NCBI GenBank assembly: GCA_020632255.1
Contig: JACKFX010000001.1
Span: 184,216 to 248,215, forward strand
Direction of reading: 5' to 3'
Length of the DNA: 64,000 nt
Source: Pseudomonadales bacterium
GTDB lineage: Bacteria > Patescibacteriota > Microgenomatia > UBA1400 > PJMF01
In this document: positions 3,043 through 55,305 of the stretch, one piece after another
Numbering within the stretch: the stretch's first letter is position 1
How the letters are laid out: the number at the start of each line of letters is the position of its first letter
Made by a program: the position numbers and the translations under genes
The notes under the pieces: model-generated
Seen by the model: the letters and a program-made list of their open reading frames with translations, nothing else
Databases searched by the model: none
Told to the model about the DNA's origin: nothing

Positions 3043-6000
3043 TTATCTTAGCAAAGCGGCGACTTTCTTTTCTAGTTTTTCTGACCATTTAACGCCGTAT
3101 GGCAAGAGTAATTTTTGCGGTTCACCGCCGTTTGGAATCAAAATTAAGACACTGTTATCTCCTGGGTATTGTTTGAGTAGTGTGCCTAAGGCTTTGAGTG
3201 TGTCCTTGCTTGTTTTTCGTGGAATGAAAATTTCTTTGTGCACGCCGTTGGTTTCGTGTGTTATTTCTCCTGTGCTGGGTTTGCTGACTTTTTCGGCGAT
3301 TAGCTGCATTTCTTCATCTCGATAGTCGACTTTGGCTTTGATGAGCAGAACTGCATCATCTTGGATGGCATCTTTGTATTCATCATAGGTACGAGGAAAA
3401 AAGACTACATCGATGCTGCCGGTTGAATCCTCTAGTCGGCCAAAAGCCATATCTTTGCCTGATTTTCTGGTTTGAACAATGCGAAGGCGAGAAAGTACTC
3501 CACCAAACATGAAAGTATTGTTAGCGTGTAAGTTTGCGTCAAGATCGCCAATATCTTTAGAGATTCGATTAGAGATTGCTCGCAGTTGTGCTGCGAGTGG
3601 ATGATCGGTTAAATACATGCCCAACAACTCTTTTTCAAAGGATAAGAGCTCTTGCTGTGGGTACTCTGGTAGCTGAGGGAAGTCGTCTTTGAGTTCGTTA
3701 GCATTAGTTTCGACATTTGCGAATAAGCTGTCTTGACCATCAATATTAGATTCAAGTTTTGCTGCTGATTTGCGAATGTTCTCCAGGTTTTCAAGCATAC
3801 TGGCGCGTGTGCCAAATGAATCCATTGCCCCAACTTTTATAAGGCACTCGAGGGTTGTTTTGTTGACTTTCCGGCCATCAGTTTCGTTAATAAATTGAGT
3901 CAGCGAAGTAAATTCTCCTATCTCATTTTTTGTTTCGACAATATTTTCAATCGCTTTGCTACCAACATGTTTTATAGCATTGAATCCAAAGCGGATAGCC
4001 AAACCTTCAAGTGAGTTTTTATTCTTTTCAATGATAAACTCAGCATCAGATTTATTAATGTCAGGAGGCAAAATCACGATACCCATTTTTTTACTCCCTT
4101 CGACAGCAGCAGAAATTTTCTCATCGGCGTTCATGGAGTGCGATGCAGCCTCGACACTCATCAAAGCAGTCATGTACTCGACTGGGAAGTTGGCTTTCAG
4201 GTAGGCAGTTTGGTAGGAAATCATCGCATAACTGGCAGCGTGCGCTTTGTTGAACCCGTAGTTTGCGAATGCCATGATGTACTGCCAGACTTTTTCGGCC
4301 ACCTCTTTTGAGTAGCCTCGTTTGCCAGATTCTAATATGAAGCGTTTTTTATTTTCTTCCAGAATTTTGATTTTCTTTTTACCCATGGCGCGGCGGATCA
4401 TGTCTGCTTCACCTAGTGAATAGCCGGCCATGAGTGAGAAAATTTGCATCACTTGCTCTTGGTAGACCATGACTCCGTAGGTTTCCTCAAAGACTTCCTT
4501 GAGTTTTGGGTGCAGATATTCAATCTTATCGGGGTTGTGTTTTCCTTCAATAAATTGTGGAATAAGTTCCATCGGTCCCGGACGGTACAATGCAAGTAAA
4601 GCTGAAACATCTGAAAACTGGCTTGGTTGAAGGCTGCGCGCAACCCGGCGCATGCCTGCCGACTCAAGTTGAAAGACGCCCATGGTTTCGCCACGAGAAA
4701 GCAGTTCGTAGGTTTTTTTATCATCGAGAGCAAGGTTATCAAGATCAAGATCAATATTTTTATATTTTTTAATAAGCTCAAGACAAAACTGTATGGTGGA
4801 AAGATTCCGCAGTCCAAGAAAGTCAAACTTGAGTAGTCCAATGGCATTATCGTCGACGTTACAGTCGAGTGCATACATGTCGTACTGGGTAATCATTTTC
4901 CCTGATTTTGAATCTTGTTGAATTGGCGTGTAGTTGTGCAGTGGTTGGTCAGCAATAATTACGGCGGCAGCATGCATACTGGAGTGACGTACTACACCTT
5001 CAACACGTTTGGCCATATCGATAAGTTTGCGATACTTGGGTAGTTGGTAGTATTCTGAAAGTTCTGGAACTTGCTGGATTGCTTGGTCAAGTGAAGTTTT
5101 TTTACCTGGATCTGCTGGAATAAGTTTGGCGATCATGTCTGGTTCTTCGTAGGGCATTCCCAGCACACGACCAATGTCTCGAATCGAGACGCGAGCTTCC
5201 ATACGACCAAAAGTAATCACATGAGCGACTTGTTCTACTCCATATTTTTCAGAACAGTACTGAATGACTTCATCACGGCGGACATCAGCAAAATCAAGAT
5301 CGATATCAGGAGGAGTTGGACGTTCGGGATTGAGGAAACGCTCGAACGGTAAGTTGTGTTCGAGGGGATTGATGGTGGTAATGCCTAAACAGTATGAAAC
5401 TAGTGACCCGGCGGCGCTGCCTCTTCCTGGGCCCACAGCAATCCCCTGCTCTTTGGCCCAGTTCACAAAATCTTGGGTGATGAGAAAGTACGCAGAGTAG
5501 CCTTTGGTTTGAATGATGTCGATCTCGTATTCAAGCCGTTCAATCATTTCTTTAGTTGGTTTTCCAAACTTTTCATAGAGTTTTTCGTGGGAGTATTTAT
5601 CAAAGAATGAGTCGATGGTTTCACCTTCCGGAATCTCGTAGTTAGGGAAAATCAGCTGACCAGTTTTGATAAAAAGGTTGCATTTTTCGGCTATTTCGAC
5701 GGTGTTGGAGATTGCTTCCGGAAGGTCATGGAAGAGCTCAATCATTTCCTCTTGTGTTTTGAGGTAATAGTCGGGGCTGCTCATTTTCATACGTTTGGTG
5801 TCTGAAATGAGTTTGCGAGTGCCCACACAAATTAATGCATCTTGGGCAGGAGCATCTTCTTTAGTAAGGTAATGAACGTCGGCGGTAGCTACTAGTTTAA
5901 TGTCGAGGTCACGACTTATCTTGATGAGTTTGGTATTCAGGTCTTCGAGGAAGTCGATTTCAGGATGGCGCTGAATTTCCACATAGAAGTCATCGCCAAA

Positions 6001-6555
6001 GTGATGTTTAAATTCTCTAAAGAGTGTGGTAGCTTCATCGTCACGGCCTTCTCGCAGCATGCGATTGAAGTAGCTGGATGGACAACCACTGAGCACAATA
6101 ACTCCCTCGGAGTGTTCAAATAAGAGATCTTTATCGATGCGGGGTTTATACGAAAAACCTTCCAGATTTGCTATGGAAGTAAGTTTCATGAGGTTACGAT
6201 ACCCAACCTCATTTTTGGCTAGTAAGGTGAGGTGAGTTTGATCGGTGCCCATTTTGGTTTGCTTATCGAATCGGGAGTTTTTGGCAACATACGCTTCGAC
6301 CCCAATAATTGGTTTGATGCCCTCTTTTTTACAGGCATTGTAGAAGTGCAAGCACCCATACATCCCACCATGATCGGTGATGGCTAAAGCATCCATGCCC
6401 AGTTTTTTTGCTTGATCGATGAGTTTGTGATGTTTGTGGTGAGGATTAATGATGTTTAAACCATCGAGCATCGAGTACTCTGTGTGCAAGTGGAGGTGCA
6501 CAAACTGAGTGGTACGTGTAGCTGGTGCTGATTGTTGTTCTGTTGTGTCTGACAT
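3043..6555 (-). CDS. dnaE: DNA polymerase III alpha subunit
   Basis: 1170 aa. N-terminal PHP domain (HLHLHTEYSMLDGL, ITDHGGMYG), polymerase core, C-terminal OB region. Confidence 0.9.
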   Translation of the reverse strand: MSDTTEQQSAPATRTTQFVHLHLHTEYSMLDGLNIINPHHKHHKLIDQAKKLGMDALAITDHGGMYGCLHFYNACKKEGIKPIIGVEAYVAKNSRFDKQTKMGTDQTHLTLLAKNEVGYRNLMKLTSIANLEGFSYKPRIDKDLLFEHSEGVIVLSGCPSSYFNRMLREGRDDEATTLFREFKHHFGDDFYVEIQRHPEIDFLEDLNTKLIKISRDLDIKLVATADVHYLTKEDAPAQDALICVGTRKLISDTKRMKMSSPDYYLKTQEEMIELFHDLPEAISNTVEIAEKCNLFIKTGQLIFPNYEIPEGETIDSFFDKYSHEKLYEKFGKPTKEMIERLEYEIDIIQTKGYSAYFLITQDFVNWAKEQGIAVGPGRGSAAGSLVSYCLGITTINPLEHNLPFERFLNPERPTPPDIDLDFADVRRDEVIQYCSEKYGVEQVAHVITFGRMEARVSIRDIGRVLGMPYEEPDMIAKLIPADPGKKTSLDQAIQQVPELSEYYQLPKYRKLIDMAKRVEGVVRHSSMHAAAVIIADQPLHNYTPIQQDSKSGKMITQYDMYALDCNVDDNAIGLLKFDFLGLRNLSTIQFCLELIKKYKNIDLDLDNLALDDKKTYELLSRGETMGVFQLESAGMRRVARSLQPSQFSDVSALLALYRPGPMELIPQFIEGKHNPDKIEYLHPKLKEVFEETYGVMVYQEQVMQIFSLMAGYSLGEADMIRRAMGKKKIKILEENKKRFILESGKRGYSKEVAEKVWQYIMAFANYGFNKAHAASYAMISYQTAYLKANFPVEYMTALMSVEAASHSMNADEKISAAVEGSKKMGIVILPPDINKSDAEFIIEKNKNSLEGLAIRFGFNAIKHVGSKAIENIVETKNEIGEFTSLTQFINETDGRKVNKTTLECLIKVGAMDSFGTRASMLENLENIRKSAAKLESNIDGQDSLFANVETNANELKDDFPQLPEYPQQELLSFEKELLGMYLTDHPLAAQLRAISNRISKDIGDLDANLHANNTFMFGGVLSRLRIVQTRKSGKDMAFGRLEDSTGSIDVVFFPRTYDEYKDAIQDDAVLLIKAKVDYRDEEMQLIAEKVSKPSTGEITHETNGVHKEIFIPRKTSKDTLKALGTLLKQYPGDNSVLILIPNGGEPQKLLLPYGVKWSEKLEKKVAALLR

Positions 6556-6674
6556 GGATAGCGTAAGAGTATCATACAGTATCTTATGCTTGTTATAAGC
6601 GTTGAATTTTTGAGTAACTTATCAGTAATACAATAAATGCTTGTTGAATCAGTTTTTTTTCAGTATATCATATC

Positions 6675-7181
6675 ATGTTCAAATTTTTTCCATCAATTCA
6701 TAAAAAAAATTTCTCCCAGAAAGGGTTCACATTAATTGAACTATTAATTGTGGTAGCAATCTTAGCAATTTTGTTAATTGTTACTTTGGTAGCGCTACGA
6801 CCAGCTGAACGTTTGGCTGATGCTCGCGATGCACGTAGAGGTGTCGATGTCAATCAGTTTTTAACAGGAATTCATGAGTGTGTGATTGATGGCGATACTG
6901 ACTTAACTACTTGTTTAGTAACACATACGGTTGGTGATGTGTATGAGATTGTCGCGTCTGGAACTACCACAGGCTGTGATGATGTGTGTACTTCTGTTAC
7001 CTCTGACACTCATTGTTTAGCGCTCGATAACACACTTTCTGATTACTTCATTGAGTTACCAGCTGATCCCGGCGGTGTGGCTACTGGTCACACGGAGTAC
7101 ACCGTTCAGGTGTACAGTAACGGTATGACAGTGATTGAGGCTTGTTCTGCCGAAAACAACACCATTAAAGTTTCACGATAA
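6675..7181 (+). CDS. type IV pilin / pseudopilin with prepilin N-terminal cleavage-methylation motif
   Basis: N-terminus MFKFFPSIHKKNFSQKG|FTLIELLIVVAILAIL is a class III signal peptide (G/FTLIE with a hydrophobic stretch). 168 aa. Confidence 0.75.
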   Translation: MFKFFPSIHKKNFSQKGFTLIELLIVVAILAILLIVTLVALRPAERLADARDARRGVDVNQFLTGIHECVIDGDTDLTTCLVTHTVGDVYEIVASGTTTGCDDVCTSVTSDTHCLALDNTLSDYFIELPADPGGVATGHTEYTVQVYSNGMTVIEACSAENNTIKVSR

Positions 7182-14023: not shown

Positions 14024-14099
14024 GGACCCGTGGTGTAGTGGTTAACATGCTTCCCTGTCACGGAAGAGATCGCCGGTTCGACTCCGGTCGGGTTCGCCA
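14024..14099 (+). tRNA. tRNA-Asp (anticodon GTC)
   Basis: Cloverleaf by eye: acceptor GGACCCG/CGGGTTC, anticodon loop CTGTCAC, T-arm GGTTCGACTCC, encoded CCA. Confidence 0.85.
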
Positions 14100-16674: not shown

Positions 16675-17124
16675 ATGGCAGAAAGTCTAGCACACACCAA
16701 GTGGATGTGTAAATATCACATAGTATTTACACCAAAGTATCGGAGAAAAGCAATATACTGCAGGTTAAGAAAAGATCTACAAGAAATAATAGTAGATCTA
16801 TGCAAATGGAAAGGGATAAAAATAGTGGAGGGACACATGATGCCAGATCATGTGCATGTACTCTTATCAATACCACCAAAATATAGTGTGTCTAGCATAA
16901 TGGGGTATTTGAAAGGCAAAAGTGCCATGATGATATTTGATCGGCATACAAACTTAAAATATAAGTACGGAAGAAGGAACTTTTGGGCAACAGGATATTA
17001 TGTATCAACAGTGGGATTGAATGAAAAAACAATCAGAAAATACATCCGTGAACAAGAGAAAGCAGATTTGATAACAGACAAGTTAACAACAAAAGAATAT
17101 GAAGACCCTTTTAAGGGTAGCTAA
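16675..17124 (+). CDS. tnpA: IS200/IS605 family Y1 transposase TnpA, second divergent copy
   Basis: 149 aa. YHIVFTPKYRR, HVHVLLSIPPKYS (HuH) and GYYVSTVG (catalytic Tyr) motifs. Only moderately similar to the first tnpA, so a different IS. Confidence 0.85.
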   Translation: MAESLAHTKWMCKYHIVFTPKYRRKAIYCRLRKDLQEIIVDLCKWKGIKIVEGHMMPDHVHVLLSIPPKYSVSSIMGYLKGKSAMMIFDRHTNLKYKYGRRNFWATGYYVSTVGLNEKTIRKYIREQEKADLITDKLTTKEYEDPFKGS

Positions 17125-17367
17125 GAAATCAGTCCACAGAGATAGCATCATTTAGGTGCTGGAAGTAACAAGCCCTTATAGGGCTCAGTCAAGCCACGTC
17201 CTATGGGCGTGGTCCTGACTTCCTTTGCAGAAAACTCTGCACAGCTATGAACGAGGGTTAGCCGCGGAGCGGATAAGCCTGAGCTGTGCGGAGAGAATGG
17301 CATATCACTCGGAGAGTGATATGCTGTTAGCATGAAAACTTGTTTTCATGAGTTGCGGAGCCGAGGA

Positions 17368-17412
17368 AACTCCGTAGTCAGCGTAGCGTACTGCGGAGAG
17401 GACGTCATTAAC
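17368..17412. repeat. ~45-bp repeat 'R', copy 1 (ggaaacTCCGTAGtCAGCGTAGCGTACTGCGGaGAGGACGTCaTTAA)
   Basis: Near-identical copy at 48961-49005. Both copies abut the 3' end of a minus-strand small gene. Confidence 0.7.
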
Positions 17413-17423
17413 AAATTCTGTCA

Positions 17424-17981: not shown

Positions 17982-18054
17982 GCCGGGATAGCTCAGCTGG
18001 TAGAGCGGCGGTATCGTAAACCGTAGGTCAGGGGTTCGAATCCCCTTCTCGGCT
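17982..18054 (+). tRNA. tRNA-Thr (anticodon CGT); CCA not encoded
   Basis: Acceptor GCCGGGA/TCTCGGC, D-arm GCTCAGCTGGTAGAGC, anticodon loop ATCGTAA, T-arm GGGGTTCGAATCCCC. TATAAT at 17961-17966 upstream. Confidence 0.8.
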
Positions 18055-48697: not shown

Positions 48698-48840
48698 CAG
48701 TGATTCATAGCATTTCATAAAAAATATGGTTATCTGGTGTATGCTCATAGATTGTGAATGTGGTCTATCATAAAAAGCTCTTCAGGCAGGAAGAGCTTTT
48801 TTAAATGTATTATGTATTTTGATTAATTGGATACAACCAC

Positions 48841-48935
48841 ATATGCGTCCATCAACTCAACAGTTGTGCTGGTAGTTTTGCCATCCATTGCGGTCTCGAA
48901 GCTTGTCCACTCGGTTCCATTCCAGCCTGCAATGA
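48841..48935 (-). pseudogene. orphan duplicate of the 3' (C-terminal) ~95 nt of the 264-aa gene at 54511-55305
   Basis: Near-identical, same orientation as 54519-54613 (ccatcaactcaacagttg(t/c)gctggtagttttgccatcca(t/c)tgcggtctcgaagcttgtccactcggttccattccagcc), then diverges. No ORF context. Confidence 0.65.
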
Positions 48936-48960
48936 AGATTGTTCTTCACGAATGGTGGCT

Positions 48961-49005
48961 GCCAAGGAAACACCGTAGCTAGCGTAGCGTACTGCGGGGA
49001 GGACG
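48961..49005. repeat. ~45-bp repeat 'R', copy 2
   Basis: ggaaacaCCGTAGcTAGCGTAGCGTACTGCGGgGAGGACGTCgTTAA, matching 17368-17412 at the right end of IS200-like element 2. Confidence 0.7.
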
Positions 49006-49052
49006 TCGTTAAGTACTTGAAAATCTTCTTTAATTAAATGAAATAAGGATAT

Positions 49053-49343
49053 TTATAAGGATAATTGCTTTTCTATATCAAGAATTTCATTTTTTGAGAA
49101 AAGACTAAGTAGCATAGAAATATATGAGTTTCTTTCTTTCAAATCAAGAATTTCTTCCCAAGGATTAAATTTGAGATGAAGTTCTAGTGGATGTGGTTCG
49201 TTTATTACTCTTTTAGTAGTGTCAATTTTTATGGCTGTAACTTTGGCTTGTTCCTCAGTACCGAGTTTGGGAACGTCATGTTTATTGATAACTAAAACTT
49301 GATCGGCTAACTTTGCAATTGGGTATATTTCAGCTTGGGTCAT
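49053..49343 (-). CDS. small (~96 aa) partner protein of the giant repeat protein; candidate immunity/antidote-type protein (inference)
   Basis: Start set at the ATG at 49343 (MTQAEIYPIAKLAD...), not the TTG used by the track. AGGAGA Shine-Dalgarno overlaps the giant gene's TAG stop. 60-70% identical paralog at 54062-54355. Confidence 0.6.
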   Translation of the reverse strand: MTQAEIYPIAKLADQVLVINKHDVPKLGTEEQAKVTAIKIDTTKRVINEPHPLELHLKFNPWEEILDLKERNSYISMLLSLFSKNEILDIEKQLSL

Positions 49344-49350
49344 TATTCTC

Positions 49351-52300
49351 CTAGTACACAACTAATTCTACTGTATGATCTGGGTTTTCTCTATTATATC
49401 TATCAACCGCTGTTCTCATTTCAGAAATTTCATACTCAGCTATACCATTACCTAGTGATAAGTGAATTGAGGTAATGTCAGTCATATCTAAGCTTCCATG
49501 AATTTGAATTTCTGAATACGAACTATCGAGTGCAGGTACCAGTGATGGAACTGAGAAGTCAGTCTTGGTTGCCTCCCAAAATCTGATCACATTGTATTTT
49601 TTAAGTGCAGACAAGTAATGAGGTTTTTGAACTGGAGAAGGCGGTCGGTCGTTATTTAAACTATCACCAAAAAGGAAAGTAGACTTCTTTTTGGCCTCAT
49701 TAGCAATTCTACAGCCGGCACGACCATATTGTACGACTGTATTTTCGGGAGGATTTTTTCCCACAGAGTTTAAAACGCCATTATTATCTGGGGTAAAGTA
49801 GCCATAAATAGTTCTTGATTGAGGTTTGTAACTTGTTTCATCTGGAAAACCAAAAGTTCTTAGTTCAAAAGCAGCTCTGTAAGAATTAGAAAGACACCCT
49901 CCTGAAGTTTGGGTTTCAAACTGGCTCTTCCATCTTTTGTCTCTTGGAAGAATATGATTCAGGAGAACGCTTACATCTGTGGCTCTAAAGAGTTGTGATT
50001 GGTCCATAGAAACTTCAGTATAGCGTTGAATCTCATCTAAGAATTCTATCAGTGATAGCCCTTCTTTTCTAAGAATTGTTCTTATGTCTCCATGCTCTTC
50101 GATAGATTCTAAGAATCTTTGCTCGTAAATGAGGATATTCTTAAGCAGAGTGATCTCAAGATCAGGATTTGCTTCGACGTTCATTTTTACACTATCCCAA
50201 TCAGCCATATATTCGATGGTGACATCGGATAATTTATTAATATCGAGTTTGTTTACTTTCTCATCATCGGGGAATTTACGTTTTATTTCAATAAGTTGAA
50301 AGAGAGCCTTTTCTTTAACTTTTTCAAAGGCTTCGGCTTGTTCTGCATTTCTTTCTCTTCTGAGAGAAAACATTCTTTTTCGCTTTTCAATTCTTTCTTT
50401 CGAAAAATACGTTATATCAAAAGTCGTACCAAGATATTGTGCAGCCGAAAGGAACATATGAATTTTTTGATGTTCTTGTGCATATGTGATTAGTTCTTTG
50501 GTTTTTACATCCCTGTCATATCCGGAAAGGCTGTCATAATCTATTCCCAAGTAGGAAGCAACAATCTTATTTTCAACCACGCTAAAGGCAAAAGTCATCA
50601 TTTGTCGAAGATCTGTTAGATCACTTTCGTTTAAGTCTGTGGGCAAATCTTCAATTAGTTTAATGTTGTTAACACGTTCTTCGATTGATTTTTGTCTTTC
50701 AGTAACTTGCTCATTTGTAAAGTACGACAGATTAATATCATCATGAGTGTACTTCATACTTGCAAGCAACTTATCGATGATGGATCTTTTTCCAGCAAGC
50801 TCTATTACTTTGCTAATAGTTGAATTAAGGTAGTGACCAGAAACATCCGAGTATTTGATTCCAATCAGGCCGCAAATTTTTTTTATCTGCTGATTTTCCT
50901 TAACAACACTATAAATAGTTTCAATCAGTACTTCAGTATCCGATGAATTTAAGTTTTCAGGAAATTGGGTGCTTAGTTGTTCTATTTTTCTTTTTCTTTC
51001 TTCACCAGCACTACTCGTGAATTCAGTGATATCAATTTCCTCTTTGATATATTTGATAGCAGAAACAAATTTTTGCATCGCATTGTTATTCTGACTTGAA
51101 TCAAGCATTATATGAACTTTATTGTGTAAATCTCCATCAAGAGATGCATATTCGATGTTTAAGTAGTGTGAGAGTAGTTTGACTTCGACAGAAGCAAACG
51201 ATTCATTTGAGATAATTTGCTTTAAGCAAACAAAACTGTAGTCGTCAAATGTATTCGGGATACTTTCGTTGATTTGAATTTGTTCAGCCATTTCAACGAT
51301 TATTTGATTTCTTCTCTCAATTTCTGCAATTGAGAAAGAATCAAGACCATCATCGTTTAAGACGAATTTTGCAGCTGCGATAAACTTGTTAAGTTGTAAC
51401 CTCTTTTTTGCAATAACAAGCAGGTGCTCAACCATATCACTCTCATAGTAATCATCAATTTCAAAGTAATCTACACCGACAAAAGCGCTGATCAAGACAA
51501 TCTGACTTTTAGAGAGAGCATTTTTGGTTTTTTTCTTCAATTCTTCAAATAATTCTGGGTCAAGATCTTCTGGGAAGTCGTTAACGGATTCCAGCATCTT
51601 TTGTTGACGTTTCTCAATATTGCTTTCGGTAAATTGGGAACAATCAAGATCAGGATTAAGAGAACTAAAAGCGGAAAGGAATTTATTGGTAAGAAAGTGC
51701 TCTTGTGAGTATTTTAGAAGTTTACCTGCTTTTTTGATGGCGCTAACATCACTGAACTCATCAGGACCTATATTCATATATGCTAGTATGACCCTGATAT
51801 CATCCTCAGAAATGTTTTCAAGAACAAGAGGGTATAAGATGTGGTATGTTAATTCATCCAGTTTCTGAGGAAAATCCTCATTAAATACAATTTTATCAGC
51901 TTTTTCTTGGACAATCCTTTTTGCTGCTTCTATGCTTTCTATTGTAAATTCTGATAAAGAAATATGATCAATTGTCACCTCAACAGCTGACAAAAATTTA
52001 TTAACCTGTGCTTTTTCTTTGACTAATCGAAGTGTATTCTGCACTTTATCACTTATATAATAGCCTTCGACATCTTCCATACTAAGACCTAATGCATCTA
52101 AAATTTGCATAAGTTCAGCTGCAGTTATTTCAAACTGGATTTCTTCAAGAAGTCTAGTTTCATAGTAAGCGTCAATAGTAGTTGGATATTTATTAGCTGT
52201 TGCCTCCATCTCCTTTTGTTTGTTATCGATATATTCTTGGGTGAATCGCGTGAGATCGAGGTCTTTTTCGAGGTACACTACGGCTGAAAGAAGTTTATCT

Positions 52301-53952
52301 AGTAGTGAGTGTTCATTTGCATACTCAATAAGACTAGTGATTTTTTGATGGGTAAAATCGCCCTCTAGACTGTCGTAGTCAGCGCCAATATAGGCAGCGA
52401 TAACTTTTGAGTCCTCTTTCTCAATTTTCCAAGAGAGCTCACTAACTAAGTTATTAAGATACAATTGGCTCACTGATTTTGGATACTCACTACGCAATGT
52501 AATTGCTATTACGGATTCTTCAATATATCTACGTCTTTTATCAATATCTTCTTTTGTATAGTATGTCAAGTCAAGTCCATCAAAGAGAATGCTAATTGCT
52601 GAGAGAAATTTGTGTGTCACTTTTTTTTCTTGGACTTGATTGAAAATATTTGCAATTTCTCTGGAATAAGTTCGATCTTCAATACTTACGTATGGAATAT
52701 CAAGAAAGGTGCATAATGAGTTGATTATGTCATCATCAAGAAATGCATCCTTAATCTCTTCAAGAAGAATGTTAAAACTAGTTTGATCTAGTGTAGGATA
52801 AAAAACATCTTGAGATGCTTCTAAAGCAGCAGCTCTCTTTTTTAAAGATTCTTTTGTAAAAATCTTAAAGTCACCTGGGATATATTCTTTTCGGTAACTT
52901 GCGAAATAGATTACAGCTGACAGAAGCTTATGCATCACTGCATGATCTTGTGCATATCTAATTATGTTTTTTGCTTCAGTAGAGTAGTGTGACGCTTCCA
53001 CCTCTTCGTAGTCTGCTCCAATAAATGCAACGATTCTTTTGGCTTCATATTCAGAATGTATATTTCTTGAAATGACTCTCGTTAGTTTTGTTATACTTAA
53101 AACATCAAGTGATTCTGGGTAATCTTCTTCTTTGGCAGCAAGCTTTTCATTCAGTTTGAAAATTTCGTGGTAAAATTCTAAATCGACCTCATCTTTTTTG
53201 ATGTATTGCACTGCTGATAAAAACCTATCAAAAAGAGAATTGCCTTCTGCAAATTCAATCAGCGATGCAAATTCAATCTGCGATGAGATGCTTGTCGTGT
53301 GTGTTTCAGAAACAATCAACTCAGGATCTGCCCCGATATATTGAGCAATTACCTTTAATTCTGACTTTGTAAGTTTGTGTTGTAATTGTTCTGTCAGTGT
53401 ACGAATGTCATGTCCACTTAATGATTTTGGAAATTCATCAATGTAGGGAATTTTATCAGCTTCTTCTACTAGTTCCTCTTTTTCTCTCCTAGTTCTTGCT
53501 ATATCAAGCGCCATCAGTCTTGCGGGGGAGTCCGCATATAAACCAGGTGTTGAAATAGAACTATATGGTTCGCGTCTAGTCAATATATCTCTTATATCGT
53601 AGGAATCAAAAGGAGCATATAAATCGGATTTTTTCTCTTCTGATGTAGGGAATTTAATATCTGGGAAATCTTCTCCAATTCTAATTTTAAGGTCATCAGT
53701 TTCAAACCTAATACCTGGGAAATCTTCTCTAATTTCAAGGCCCTCGGTAGTAGCGGGTGTCATTATATCTACATCACCTAAAGGCTCTGAAATAGTTTCT
53801 TCTGGGTGAGTTTTTTTCATTGCGCGTCGAAGCATTCTAGCGAGTATACTTTTGCCAAATGAATACGGTGTATCGTCATCACCTATTTTGTAGTCAGGTT
53901 TATCTGGGTGTGACTCAATTAGCTTCTTGAATTCGTGAAATTCTGTTGTCAT
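49351..53952 (-). CDS. giant (1533 aa) repeat protein: unique N-terminal region, ~10 tandem ~105-aa novel repeats, distinct ~250-aa C-terminal domain
   Basis: Repeats share (I/V)xx(Y/F)(I/L)G(A/I)DY(D/E), then ~30 aa later (K/R)(F/L)LSA(V/I)xY(I/L/F), then D(L/I)(T/D)x(F/Y)(T/S)xE. No signal peptide, no known motif seen. TATAAT 7 nt upstream of the ATG suggests a leaderless transcript. Confidence 0.7.
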   Translation of the reverse strand: MTTEFHEFKKLIESHPDKPDYKIGDDDTPYSFGKSILARMLRRAMKKTHPEETISEPLGDVDIMTPATTEGLEIREDFPGIRFETDDLKIRIGEDFPDIKFPTSEEKKSDLYAPFDSYDIRDILTRREPYSSISTPGLYADSPARLMALDIARTRREKEELVEEADKIPYIDEFPKSLSGHDIRTLTEQLQHKLTKSELKVIAQYIGADPELIVSETHTTSISSQIEFASLIEFAEGNSLFDRFLSAVQYIKKDEVDLEFYHEIFKLNEKLAAKEEDYPESLDVLSITKLTRVISRNIHSEYEAKRIVAFIGADYEEVEASHYSTEAKNIIRYAQDHAVMHKLLSAVIYFASYRKEYIPGDFKIFTKESLKKRAAALEASQDVFYPTLDQTSFNILLEEIKDAFLDDDIINSLCTFLDIPYVSIEDRTYSREIANIFNQVQEKKVTHKFLSAISILFDGLDLTYYTKEDIDKRRRYIEESVIAITLRSEYPKSVSQLYLNNLVSELSWKIEKEDSKVIAAYIGADYDSLEGDFTHQKITSLIEYANEHSLLDKLLSAVVYLEKDLDLTRFTQEYIDNKQKEMEATANKYPTTIDAYYETRLLEEIQFEITAAELMQILDALGLSMEDVEGYYISDKVQNTLRLVKEKAQVNKFLSAVEVTIDHISLSEFTIESIEAAKRIVQEKADKIVFNEDFPQKLDELTYHILYPLVLENISEDDIRVILAYMNIGPDEFSDVSAIKKAGKLLKYSQEHFLTNKFLSAFSSLNPDLDCSQFTESNIEKRQQKMLESVNDFPEDLDPELFEELKKKTKNALSKSQIVLISAFVGVDYFEIDDYYESDMVEHLLVIAKKRLQLNKFIAAAKFVLNDDGLDSFSIAEIERRNQIIVEMAEQIQINESIPNTFDDYSFVCLKQIISNESFASVEVKLLSHYLNIEYASLDGDLHNKVHIMLDSSQNNNAMQKFVSAIKYIKEEIDITEFTSSAGEERKRKIEQLSTQFPENLNSSDTEVLIETIYSVVKENQQIKKICGLIGIKYSDVSGHYLNSTISKVIELAGKRSIIDKLLASMKYTHDDINLSYFTNEQVTERQKSIEERVNNIKLIEDLPTDLNESDLTDLRQMMTFAFSVVENKIVASYLGIDYDSLSGYDRDVKTKELITYAQEHQKIHMFLSAAQYLGTTFDITYFSKERIEKRKRMFSLRRERNAEQAEAFEKVKEKALFQLIEIKRKFPDDEKVNKLDINKLSDVTIEYMADWDSVKMNVEANPDLEITLLKNILIYEQRFLESIEEHGDIRTILRKEGLSLIEFLDEIQRYTEVSMDQSQLFRATDVSVLLNHILPRDKRWKSQFETQTSGGCLSNSYRAAFELRTFGFPDETSYKPQSRTIYGYFTPDNNGVLNSVGKNPPENTVVQYGRAGCRIANEAKKKSTFLFGDSLNNDRPPSPVQKPHYLSALKKYNVIRFWEATKTDFSVPSLVPALDSSYSEIQIHGSLDMTDITSIHLSLGNGIAEYEISEMRTAVDRYNRENPDHTVELVVY

Positions 53953-53959
53953 AGAAAAA

Positions 53960-53965
53960 ATTATA
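53960..53965 (-). promoter_or_regulatory. -10 box (TATAAT) 7 nt upstream of the giant gene's ATG; possible leaderless transcript
   Basis: Minus strand reads taggTATAATtttttctATGACA. No Shine-Dalgarno is present. Confidence 0.35.
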
Positions 53966-54061
53966 CCTATTTTTTATTGGCTATGTAATAACAAAAAAAG
54001 GAATTTTTTATAGTAAAATATTTTGACCAAGTACTGAATTAAAACAAGCTTAACTGTAACT

Positions 54062-54355
54062 TTATTTTTTCAGTTGTGATTCGATATTACTCATTGTTTC
54101 TTTGGAGAAAAGTCTTAAAAGCATAGACATATAGGCATTTCTCTCATTTTGATCAACAATTTCTTCCCAAGGATTAAATTTGAGATGAAGTTCTAGTGGA
54201 TGTGGTTCGTTTATTACTCTTTTAGTAGTGTCAATTTTTATAGCCTTAACAGTAGCTTGTTTTCTAGGATTTCCAAGTTTAGTTACGTCACTTTTATTAA
54301 TTACTAACAGTAAGTCGGCAAGTTTAGCTATTGGGTAAATTTCGGGTTTTTTCAT
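54062..54355 (-). CDS. small partner-protein paralog (97 aa) of 49053-49343
   Basis: MKKPEIYPIAKLADLLLVINKSDV...KIDTTKRVINEPHPLELHLKFNPWEEI is colinear with the partner protein. Confidence 0.6.
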   Translation of the reverse strand: MKKPEIYPIAKLADLLLVINKSDVTKLGNPRKQATVKAIKIDTTKRVINEPHPLELHLKFNPWEEIVDQNERNAYMSMLLRLFSKETMSNIESQLKK

Positions 54356-54369
54356 ATTAAGTATATAAC

Positions 54370-54500
54370 CATCTCAACGGGATAATCTGGATATAGTTGA
54401 TTATACTCTAAGACTGCTTGTTTCATCTGACCAATTTATTTTCGGGTGATATTATTATTCTTTGATAGATGAATTGAGGTAATATCATTCATGGTAACTT
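54370..54500 (-). pseudogene. degenerate remnant of a giant-protein C-terminal coding end (orphan C-terminal cassette)
   Basis: 54380-54500 aligns by eye at ~65-70% identity with the last ~45 codons of the giant gene (49365-49500), e.g. gata(g/a)(a/g)tgaattgaggtaat(a/g)tca, with indels and frameshifts. No ORF remains. Confidence 0.55.
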
Positions 54501-54510
54501 CACCATTGAA

Positions 54511-55305
54511 TTAGTTGCCCACCACAACATACGCTTCCATCAACTCAACAGTTGCGCTGGTAGTTTTGCCATCCACTGCGGTCTCGAAGCTTGTCCACTC
54601 GGTTCCATTCCAGCCCATGATGGTGAGTGCACCTTCATGTTTTGCACGGATGCTGAGTTCTGCTTCACCTGAAAGAATTGTATTACTGGTCAAAGAATAA
54701 ACTTCTGAAGCTAACTTACCTTCAAGTTCGCCTGGGTATCCTGGAGAGTTGTAGATAATCAGCAAGCTGTTTCGAGCCAAATCTTCAGAATCAATCTGAA
54801 AAAAGGCATCTTTGGAAGCAAAGGCTGTTTCGCCGTTGTTTTCAATGTATTTCCAGTCAGACTTAAGGTCATAGTTGTTGTCTCCTGTGTAGAAAGCTCG
54901 GAGTTCTCCCCCCTTCACATCTTCGTGATAGGTACATGATCCACCTGCACTACAGCTGCCAAGCAAGATTTTATCTTCTGCAGGCAGGCTCATCAGGTCA
55001 ATCTCACCAAAGGCACCCTGGAGGAGTGAACCCGTTTGGTACTCAAGTTCGTACTCTGCAGCATCTGCAGCCAGTTTAACTTCTTCAACTTCAATGACAA
55101 CATTTCGGCTATCAACAGGGACGATGCGCATGTATGGGCGTTCTGCGACGTCGATGACATTGTAGTTACGTATAGTGGTTTTCTTTTTTGTTGGCTCCTC
55201 TGTAGCTGTTTCTGCAGGTTTGCGGGTCATCATGTAGGCACCGACACCGATACCGAGTAACACCAAGACAGCTACGACACCTGCAATAACTTTTTTATTC
55301 TTCAT
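54511..55305 (-). CDS. hypothetical membrane-anchored/secreted protein (264 aa)
   Basis: N-terminal TM/signal anchor (VIAGVVAVLVLLGIGVGAYMM), then a mostly beta-type domain. Its 3' end is duplicated at 48841-48935. Confidence 0.5.
   Translation of the reverse strand: MKNKKVIAGVVAVLVLLGIGVGAYMMTRKPAETATEEPTKKKTTIRNYNVIDVAERPYMRIVPVDSRNVVIEVEEVKLAADAAEYELEYQTGSLLQGAFGEIDLMSLPAEDKILLGSCSAGGSCTYHEDVKGGELRAFYTGDNNYDLKSDWKYIENNGETAFASKDAFFQIDSEDLARNSLLIIYNSPGYPGELEGKLASEVYSLTSNTILSGEAELSIRAKHEGALTIMGWNGTEWTSFETAVDGKTTSATVELMEAYVVVGN

Follow-up and report, generated by a model that had tools for sequence, protein, structure and literature searches.

Toxin–antitoxin pairs built on an enzyme of the ADP-ribosyltransferase (ART) fold include DarT-DarG, RES-Xre/MbcTA and ParST, and an enzyme gene followed by a downstream, translationally coupled partner gene is typical of toxin-then-neutraliser pairs such as DarT-DarG. 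The domain DUF3626 has been characterised, in the literature searched, only through the Salmonella host-targeting effector SopF (PMC6682159). This effector transfers ADP-ribose from NAD+, has an I-Y-E triad and depends on ARF GTPases for its activation (PMC10333799). The effectors of intracellular, rapidly diversifying conflict systems are fused to EADs, adaptor domains without enzymatic activity (Kaur, Burroughs, Iyer and Aravind 2020; PMC7159879). In the stretch of DNA analysed here (64,000 nt, hereafter the window), a giant gene combines a DUF3626/SopF-type ART with EAD7-like repeats. An earlier note had described the segment immediately upstream of this gene, at 54062–54510, as a degenerate second cassette of toxin/immunity type. 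Our results suggest, with reasonable but not high confidence, that the segment is best read overall as a decayed tandem toxin/neutraliser-like module, with repeats driving its loss and amplification. The host genome resembles that of a CPR bacterium near Ca. Woesebacteria. Its nearest relative is a Ca. Woesebacteria MAG (98%–100% identity), as against the NCBI label ‘Pseudomonadales bacterium’; its genes, DUF4012 among them, fit CPR, and the label is probably wrong.

Locus layout and the giant ART gene

The genes of the locus all lie on the minus strand and follow one another, in transcription order, as geneX, a relic ART gene, small2, an intergenic region, the giant gene, small1, an element F, a repeat D′ and a hairpin. 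GeneX (54511..55305) encodes 264 amino acids with an N-terminal transmembrane segment; it gave only weak TM-type matches and belongs to no known family in Pfam, PHROGs, PADLOC or NCBIfam. Its functional 3′ end is D (54510..54615, minus strand), the upstream copy of a 106-bp direct repeat that is 90.6% identical to the downstream copy D′ (48822..48927, minus strand; 47% GC). Between the two copies lie the relic (54361..54507), small2 (54062..54355), a 109-nt AT-rich intergenic region (53953..54061; 21% GC), the giant gene (49351..53952; 1533 aa) and the 96-aa partner gene small1 (49053..49343), whose ATG, preceded by AGGAG, is located 7 nt past the TAG of the giant gene. About 120 nt separate small1 from D′, including the 81-nt element F (48932..49012) at the right border, and a terminator-like hairpin (ca. 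48772..48800) follows D′. The best promoter-like match in the region was found just before the ATG of the giant gene (53989..53960, 10 of 12), in a scan that overall did not exceed shuffled sequences; neither promoter nor terminator scans of the region rose above shuffles.

The block between D and D′ has a GC content of 34.6%, compared with 42%–44% in the flanks, and the change is a sharp step at the geneX stop codon (geneX: 46%; the block: 30%–35%). This contrast suggests a foreign island of 5.7 kb. The island seems to have entered geneX 106 nt ahead of its original end and to have brought a substitute for that end, so that D′ is the displaced original. No recombinase or replication gene was recognised in the block using Pfam, NCBIfam, PHROGs and PADLOC. 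A neighbouring 336-aa gene had no family match in the same four collections and was dismissed as a candidate integrase, not being recognisable as one in Pfam/PHROGs-type profile searches. A search of JGI metagenomes for an exact 30-mer of the geneX repeat had 0 matches and thus revealed no empty-site allele. Neither the giant gene nor geneX was on record as an exact sequence; the giant protein recurs with two amino acid changes in another dataset (P0019).

Element F is 82% identical to a sequence at 17332..17411, which follows, at a distance of 0.2 kb, an IS200-type Y1 transposase gene (16675–17124, plus strand; Pfam Y1_Tnp, E = 1.5e-39). This gene is followed by a GC-rich, hairpin-rich tail of ca. 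300 nt (17125–17420), of which the 81-nt piece is the part that recurs as F and in which Rfam detected nothing. Two tRNA genes were identified with Rfam (14024–14096 and 17982–18054), the second ca. 0.6 kb downstream of the IS200-like region. An IS200-type mechanism for the island was considered and rejected: the likeness is restricted to 81 nt without a left-end counterpart, and the hairpins were not significant.

The giant protein comprises an N-terminal part of 158 aa, ten tandem EAD7-like repeats of ca. 105 aa (residues 159–1215, nt 50308..53478; delimited using jackhmmer), a helical linker and a C-terminal ART domain (residues about 1281–1533, nt 49354..50112). One repeat (residues 1115–1168) passed the Pfam EAD7 model with 46.2 bits against a cut-off of 32. 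The ART domain itself scored 16.1 bits against Pfam DUF3626, below the cut-off of 27, and homologues at 35%–41% identity passed it. An AF2 model of the C-terminus, built from 11 sequences, reached a pLDDT of 79.6, and its top Foldseek hits were the SopF structures 7dn9 and 7dn8 (E = 1e-8, TM 0.52–0.58), followed by DarT. At the sequence level, ART profiles built from a single sequence or from 11 sequences had no match among PDB sequences; only a 19-sequence profile reached the SopF chains (E = 1.3e-4 for 7dn8, and 2.3e-3). In the alignment, SopF YIEAHIHG corresponds to YSE1481IQIHG of the giant protein, which places the catalytic glutamate at E1481, the position that carries a substitution in the NAD complex 7dn9; the SopF motifs RPIY and YG correspond to RTIY1383 and QY1409G. 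All residues invariant in the ART family are present. Judged by these alignments and the structural model, the C-terminus of the giant protein is a DUF3626/SopF-family ADP-ribosyltransferase, a predicted NAD+-consuming enzyme in which the catalytic glutamate and the NAD-site motifs are kept. The ART family to which it belongs is a large bacterial radiation (1821 cluster representatives at E < 1e-3), some members of which are fused to NUDIX, topoisomerase I or phage minor-capsid/MuF-type modules.

The relic ART tail and the two partner genes

The earlier note had proposed that the DNA preceding small2 aligns with the end of the giant gene, and a tblastn comparison confirmed this: residues 1485–1533 of the giant protein match window positions 54507..54361 over 49 aa with 49% identity, ungapped (E = 4.7e-8). 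The indels and frameshifts ascribed to this remnant were not found. It keeps to one frame throughout, and its only lesions are a 5′ truncation and a single in-frame TAA (54438..54436). The translation aligns end to end with the final 48 positions (353–400) of the HMM built for the ART family, with 45.8 bits (E = 2.5e-16), and the similarity is therefore not a product of AT-rich low-complexity sequence. The relic begins 3 nt past the stop codon of geneX and closes as YLI-TGA, the TGA overlapping the ATG of small2 (ATGA). Its first codon aligns to H1485 of the giant protein, four residues past the catalytic glutamate, so that the relic lacks the enzyme motif and has no enzymatic potential.

The substitution pattern (Nei–Gojobori, NG86) between the relic and the end of the giant gene (pS 0.64, pN 0.35, omega about 0.33), together with the equal distance (49%) of the relic from the giant protein and from the ART of another organism (P0008), suggests an old, separate gene. 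On this sequence evidence, the relic is the tail of a long-diverged ART gene that evolved as coding sequence, rather than a recent duplicate in decay. The earlier notion of a duplicated unit of giant C-terminus and small gene thus holds as far as a second cassette with an intact small gene is concerned, whereas the description of its remnant as frameshifted does not. The relic also contains a mini-ORF of 24 codons (54424–54352, minus strand; MKQAVLEYNQLYPDYPVEMVIYLI, then a stop), which starts downstream of the TAA and whose stop lies in the ATGA shared with small2. Small2 has no obvious ribosome-binding site, and this mini-ORF could preserve its translational coupling.

Small2 is an intact 97-aa ORF, and its product is 74% identical to that of small1 (70/95, E = 7e-49), slightly above the ca. 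60%–70% that had been estimated by eye when it was first recognised as a paralogue. The two genes share a core of 84 nt with perfect identity (54241..54158 in small2, 49232..49149 in small1). Outside this core, synonymous sites are saturated (pS 0.70–0.82, pN 0.19–0.29; Nei–Gojobori), and the two cassettes are therefore long-separated paralogues, both of which evolved as functional coding sequence. The core is a recent gene-conversion or crossover tract. An AF2 model of the small protein had a pLDDT of 91 and matched no solved structure. The small proteins belong to no Pfam, NCBIfam, PHROGs or PADLOC family, and no match was obtained in phage genomes.

Distribution and possible role of the small protein

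A word-indexed search with the small protein returned only seven close relatives; pattern scans for the family extended this to 11 genome loci and 37 metagenome loci. Among the 65 small-gene occurrences in all fetched loci, 46 had an ART gene ending 2–77 nt upstream on the same strand, which bears out the association of the small gene with giant-type C-termini that the earlier note had proposed looking for in related genomes. Six occurrences were at a contig edge, and the remainder were relic cases, edge fragments and six loci without ART. The named genomes among these loci belonged mostly to CPR (Saccharibacteria, Parcubacteria, Vogelbacteria, Collierbacteria and ‘Patescibacteria group’), with one Nanoarchaeota MAG. 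Most relatives were plain two-gene pairs with an ART of 300–460 aa, that is, a toxin–antitoxin-like layout of two co-directional, tightly spaced genes kept together in different genomes. The literature searched, in which DUF3626 is mentioned in two papers only, does not describe a module of DUF3626 with such a partner, and PADLOC contains none either.

The arrangement of the pair varied. One small gene served two tandem ARTs in L001, and two modules were placed head to head in L019. In Parcubacteria GW2011_GWA2_40_23 (L020, the same as L043/L044; 9070–10279), the ART was split over three frames and the small gene after it was intact. A Vogelbacteria locus (L016, 3777–4137) carried an internally deleted ART fragment after a complete module, without a second small gene, and L010 and L063 contained ART arrays without any small gene. 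A further candidate ART paralogue (L001:4316–5392) was rejected at 17% identity. An unannotated family of ca. 380 aa adjoined the ART–small pair in at least 20 loci (L015 7533–8666, L021 7620–8780, L022 7605–8762, L064 6049–7194, L019 10491–12404, L001 8098–10230 and others), with varying position and orientation; it had no Pfam or PDB sequence match and was absent from the window. In L001, it formed part of a 710-aa protein with a PARP catalytic-domain match.

The earlier note had read the segment as an orphan toxin/immunity cassette of the kind left in polymorphic toxin loci. In such a scenario, the giant protein would be an exported toxin with a swappable C-terminus, and the relic with small2 an orphan C-terminus/immunity cassette, retained because it confers immunity and allows the toxin to be switched. 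The C-terminal ART is indeed an effector-type domain with an adjacent small gene, a relic C-terminus lies beside an intact small gene, other broken ARTs occur near small genes, and the many N-terminal modules fused to members of the ART family include a phage minor-capsid/MuF-type domain. The architecture, however, is not that of a polymorphic toxin. The giant protein has no known secretion or trafficking domain, signal peptide or TM segment (only EAD7 was found using Pfam, NCBIfam, PHROGs and PADLOC), its N-terminus read by eye contains no hydrophobic segment, and EAD7-like repeats are typical of intracellular conflict systems; it would more plausibly act inside the cell than be exported. Orphan cassettes are normally found downstream of the full gene, but the relic precedes it, and the recombination described below removes the whole giant gene instead of swapping its tip. 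The sole other repeat-bearing homologue (L008/L009) has the same ART at 59% identity, with no C-terminal swapping seen in this small sample, and most relatives are short standalone ARTs in two-gene pairs. The classical polymorphic-toxin reading therefore fails on three tested features, namely secretion domain, variable C-termini and downstream orphan cassettes, and we regard it as quite unlikely. The homologue L008 (and identically L009) has a single in-frame stop at ca. 2910 in its repeat region, giving an 896-aa repeat ORF and a 370-aa ART ORF followed by the small gene; a 21-aa ORF upstream of it was rejected as the end of a small gene.

The small domain was also found away from ARTs. In L051 and L052, the order was McrB-McrC-SIR2-small (4757–6339 in L051). 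In L039 (McrB-McrC-fusion, 5983–7158) and L059 (UvrD-SIR2-fusion-REase, 5974–7143), the domain was N-terminal in a fusion with a PAD_porph-type (guanidino-modifying) enzyme. Considered beside the ART loci, these SIR2- and PAD-linked loci indicate, from gene context, that the small domain partners with NAD+-consuming effectors in defence-type neighbourhoods.

The small protein may act as a neutraliser: its gene is placed after the ART gene and coupled to it, is conserved along with it, and is kept even where the ART gene is broken; neutralisation of the enzyme would also explain why the small gene persists after enzyme loss. The main rival to this role is an accessory or regulatory one, in which the small protein is a subunit (activator, adaptor or sensor) common to NAD+-consuming effectors, and small2 persists because it serves the giant or other enzymes. 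The SIR2 and PAD_porph contexts, in McrBC or UvrD neighbourhoods, mean that the protein could be a regulator or adaptor instead of an inhibitor. They weaken the neutraliser role, as do the ART arrays without a small gene and the motif HLKFNPWEE, which is invariant in the family and would be unusual in a fast-evolving immunity protein. The single small gene for two tandem ARTs in L001 and the dependence of SopF on a protein cofactor, the ARF GTPase (PMC10333799), likewise suit a subunit. However, an activator would have no role beside the frameshifted ART of L020 or the deleted ARTs of the window relic and L011, and in these cases the small gene is kept. Its downstream, translationally coupled position, moreover, is the one typical of pairs such as DarT-DarG. 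We therefore consider the accessory role a genuine but doubtful alternative, and a neutralising partner remains our preferred reading.

Recombination at the repeats and comparison with known systems

Further contigs carry rearranged versions of the locus. A Ca. Woesebacteria contig (GCA_020429005.1; L011, identical to L012) has the order geneX-D-relic-one small gene-F-D′-terminator-336-aa gene, without the giant gene. In a three-way alignment, it matched the upstream copy of the window with 100% identity as far as the core and, past the core, the downstream copy with 100% identity; its small protein (P0002) is the chimera of small1 and small2 to be expected from this. The window genome and the L011 genome accordingly differ by one homologous crossover inside the 84-nt core. 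In another sample, a contig (L025; ENA ERZ27309081, k141_19758, positions 1–942) runs from the end of the giant gene through small1, F, D and the relic into small2 and ends inside the core. Its crossover lies within the first 39 shared nt of the repeat, and it has two SNPs in small1. Excision of a 5.7-kb circle would produce such a joint, and so would a tandem duplication.

These variant contigs are short (2.3, 1.9 and 0.9 kb). Being identical, L011 and L012 do not count as independent observations, and in both a mis-join across the 84-nt core is conceivable. Repeat-caused assembly artefacts could then account for all of them, leaving the arrangement of the window as the only real one. It fits this explanation that L025 ends inside the core, and that the sole outcome of a look-up of the 336-aa neighbour gene was two Logan contigs (L067 and L068) breaking inside the repeat. 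Yet L025 comes from a k = 141 assembly and its joint shares only 39 nt, which requires real reads spanning it; the two SNPs in small1 indicate that it is from another strain; and L011 crosses the core into unique sequence on both sides. We regard an artefact as quite unlikely.

The direction of the event is a separate matter, and sequence alone proves neither deletion nor insertion. An L011-like state might be ancestral, the giant gene with a small gene having entered as a circle of ca. 5.0 kb via a single crossover in the core. The configuration a-core-b′/a′-core-b in the window against a-core-b in L011 fits such a Campbell-type integration as well as a deletion, L025 shows that circular or tandem forms of the block arise, and the composition of the block is foreign. 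This history, however, needs pre-existing 84-nt identity between otherwise saturated genes in two separate molecules, and for that reason intragenomic conversion followed by deletion is simpler. In addition, the block has no recombinase or replication gene, and D and D′ already flank the L011 version, so that the island was in place before the two genomes came to differ. We consider the reverse history unlikely and favour intragenomic conversion followed by a deletion in the lineage of L011.

Under the preferred reading of a decayed tandem module, 54062–54510 would be the remnant of another module of ART and partner, formerly arranged in tandem with that of the giant gene, the whole block lying inside a 5.7-kb low-GC island inserted in the 3′ end of a membrane-protein gene. 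Each module would have consisted of a DUF3626/SopF-family ART gene followed by a translationally coupled gene of ca. 97 aa whose family had not been annotated before. A deletion in the upstream module would have left only the last 49 ART codons, without the catalytic residue, and the partner gene stayed intact. The small protein is presumed to bind the NAD+-consuming enzyme and to neutralise or control it, much as an antitoxin or immunity protein would. Gene conversion has made 84 nt identical in otherwise old partner paralogues, and this core, together with the 106-bp repeats flanking the island, is the apparent substrate for homologous recombination.

In CPR/Patescibacteria, the ART is accompanied by a small partner that is dedicated to it and unannotated, and in many cases by a third protein of ca. 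380 aa. If the partner is a neutraliser, the pair would represent a new module of toxin/antitoxin type based on an ART, in organisms with little-explored conflict systems, and the partner domain would link this module to SIR2 defence effectors. The locus is also an unusually clean natural case of paralogous partner genes mediating the precise loss, and possibly the amplification, of a 4.6-kb effector gene between near-identical strains. A bolder proposal, which we offer tentatively as possible rather than probable, is that the ca. 97-aa protein founds a new family of partners in CPR and DPANN, promiscuous in that it serves NAD+-consuming effectors of both SopF-type ART and SIR2 kind. The island would then be a recombination-driven gain/loss/amplification cassette, in which the core and the 106-bp repeats switch the giant toxin gene on and off across the population.

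Among described systems, SopF (PDB 7DN8/7DN9) shares enzyme family and fold with the giant ART, and the motifs RPIY, YG and Y-x-E-x-[QH]-I-H-G, including the catalytic glutamate, are conserved between them. [quoted passage not shown] SopF is activated by ARF GTPases and has no adjacent small partner described in the literature searched, whereas the ART of the window has a dedicated one. The EAD-coupled conflict systems (PMC7159879) likewise fuse EAD7 to an enzymatic effector. They differ in carrying one EAD7 unit instead of ten in tandem, in having a core NTPase (VMAP, iSTAND or GAP1) with a matching EAD, for which none was found within the 64-kb window, and in their hosts, which are bacteria of multicellular habit and not CPR.

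Rhs and CDI polymorphic loci resemble the locus in combining a large repeat protein and a C-terminal enzyme with a small gene directly downstream, in having a truncated fragment and an intact small gene nearby, and in the role of repeats in recombination. The position typical of an immunity gene in polymorphic toxin systems is found both in the window (7 nt) and at the 46 loci (2–77 nt), which makes the small gene a candidate immunity gene. In contrast to these loci, the locus in the window has no secretion module, its relic lies upstream and not downstream, its scaffold has no alternative C-termini, and recombination deletes the entire large gene.

The likeness to DarT-DarG and other ART-fold toxin–antitoxin pairs extends to the gene order, in which the gene of an NAD+-using ART-fold enzyme is followed by a co-directional, tightly coupled partner; to the occurrence of modules singly, in tandem or decayed in accessory islands; and to the structure of the enzyme, DarT being the next-best match of the giant ART after SopF. 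Unlike in these pairs, the partner in the window has no macrodomain, Xre/HTH or other recognisable domain and its fold is unmatched, its neutralising role is a putative one, and the fusion of the ART to giant EAD7 repeats has no counterpart among them.
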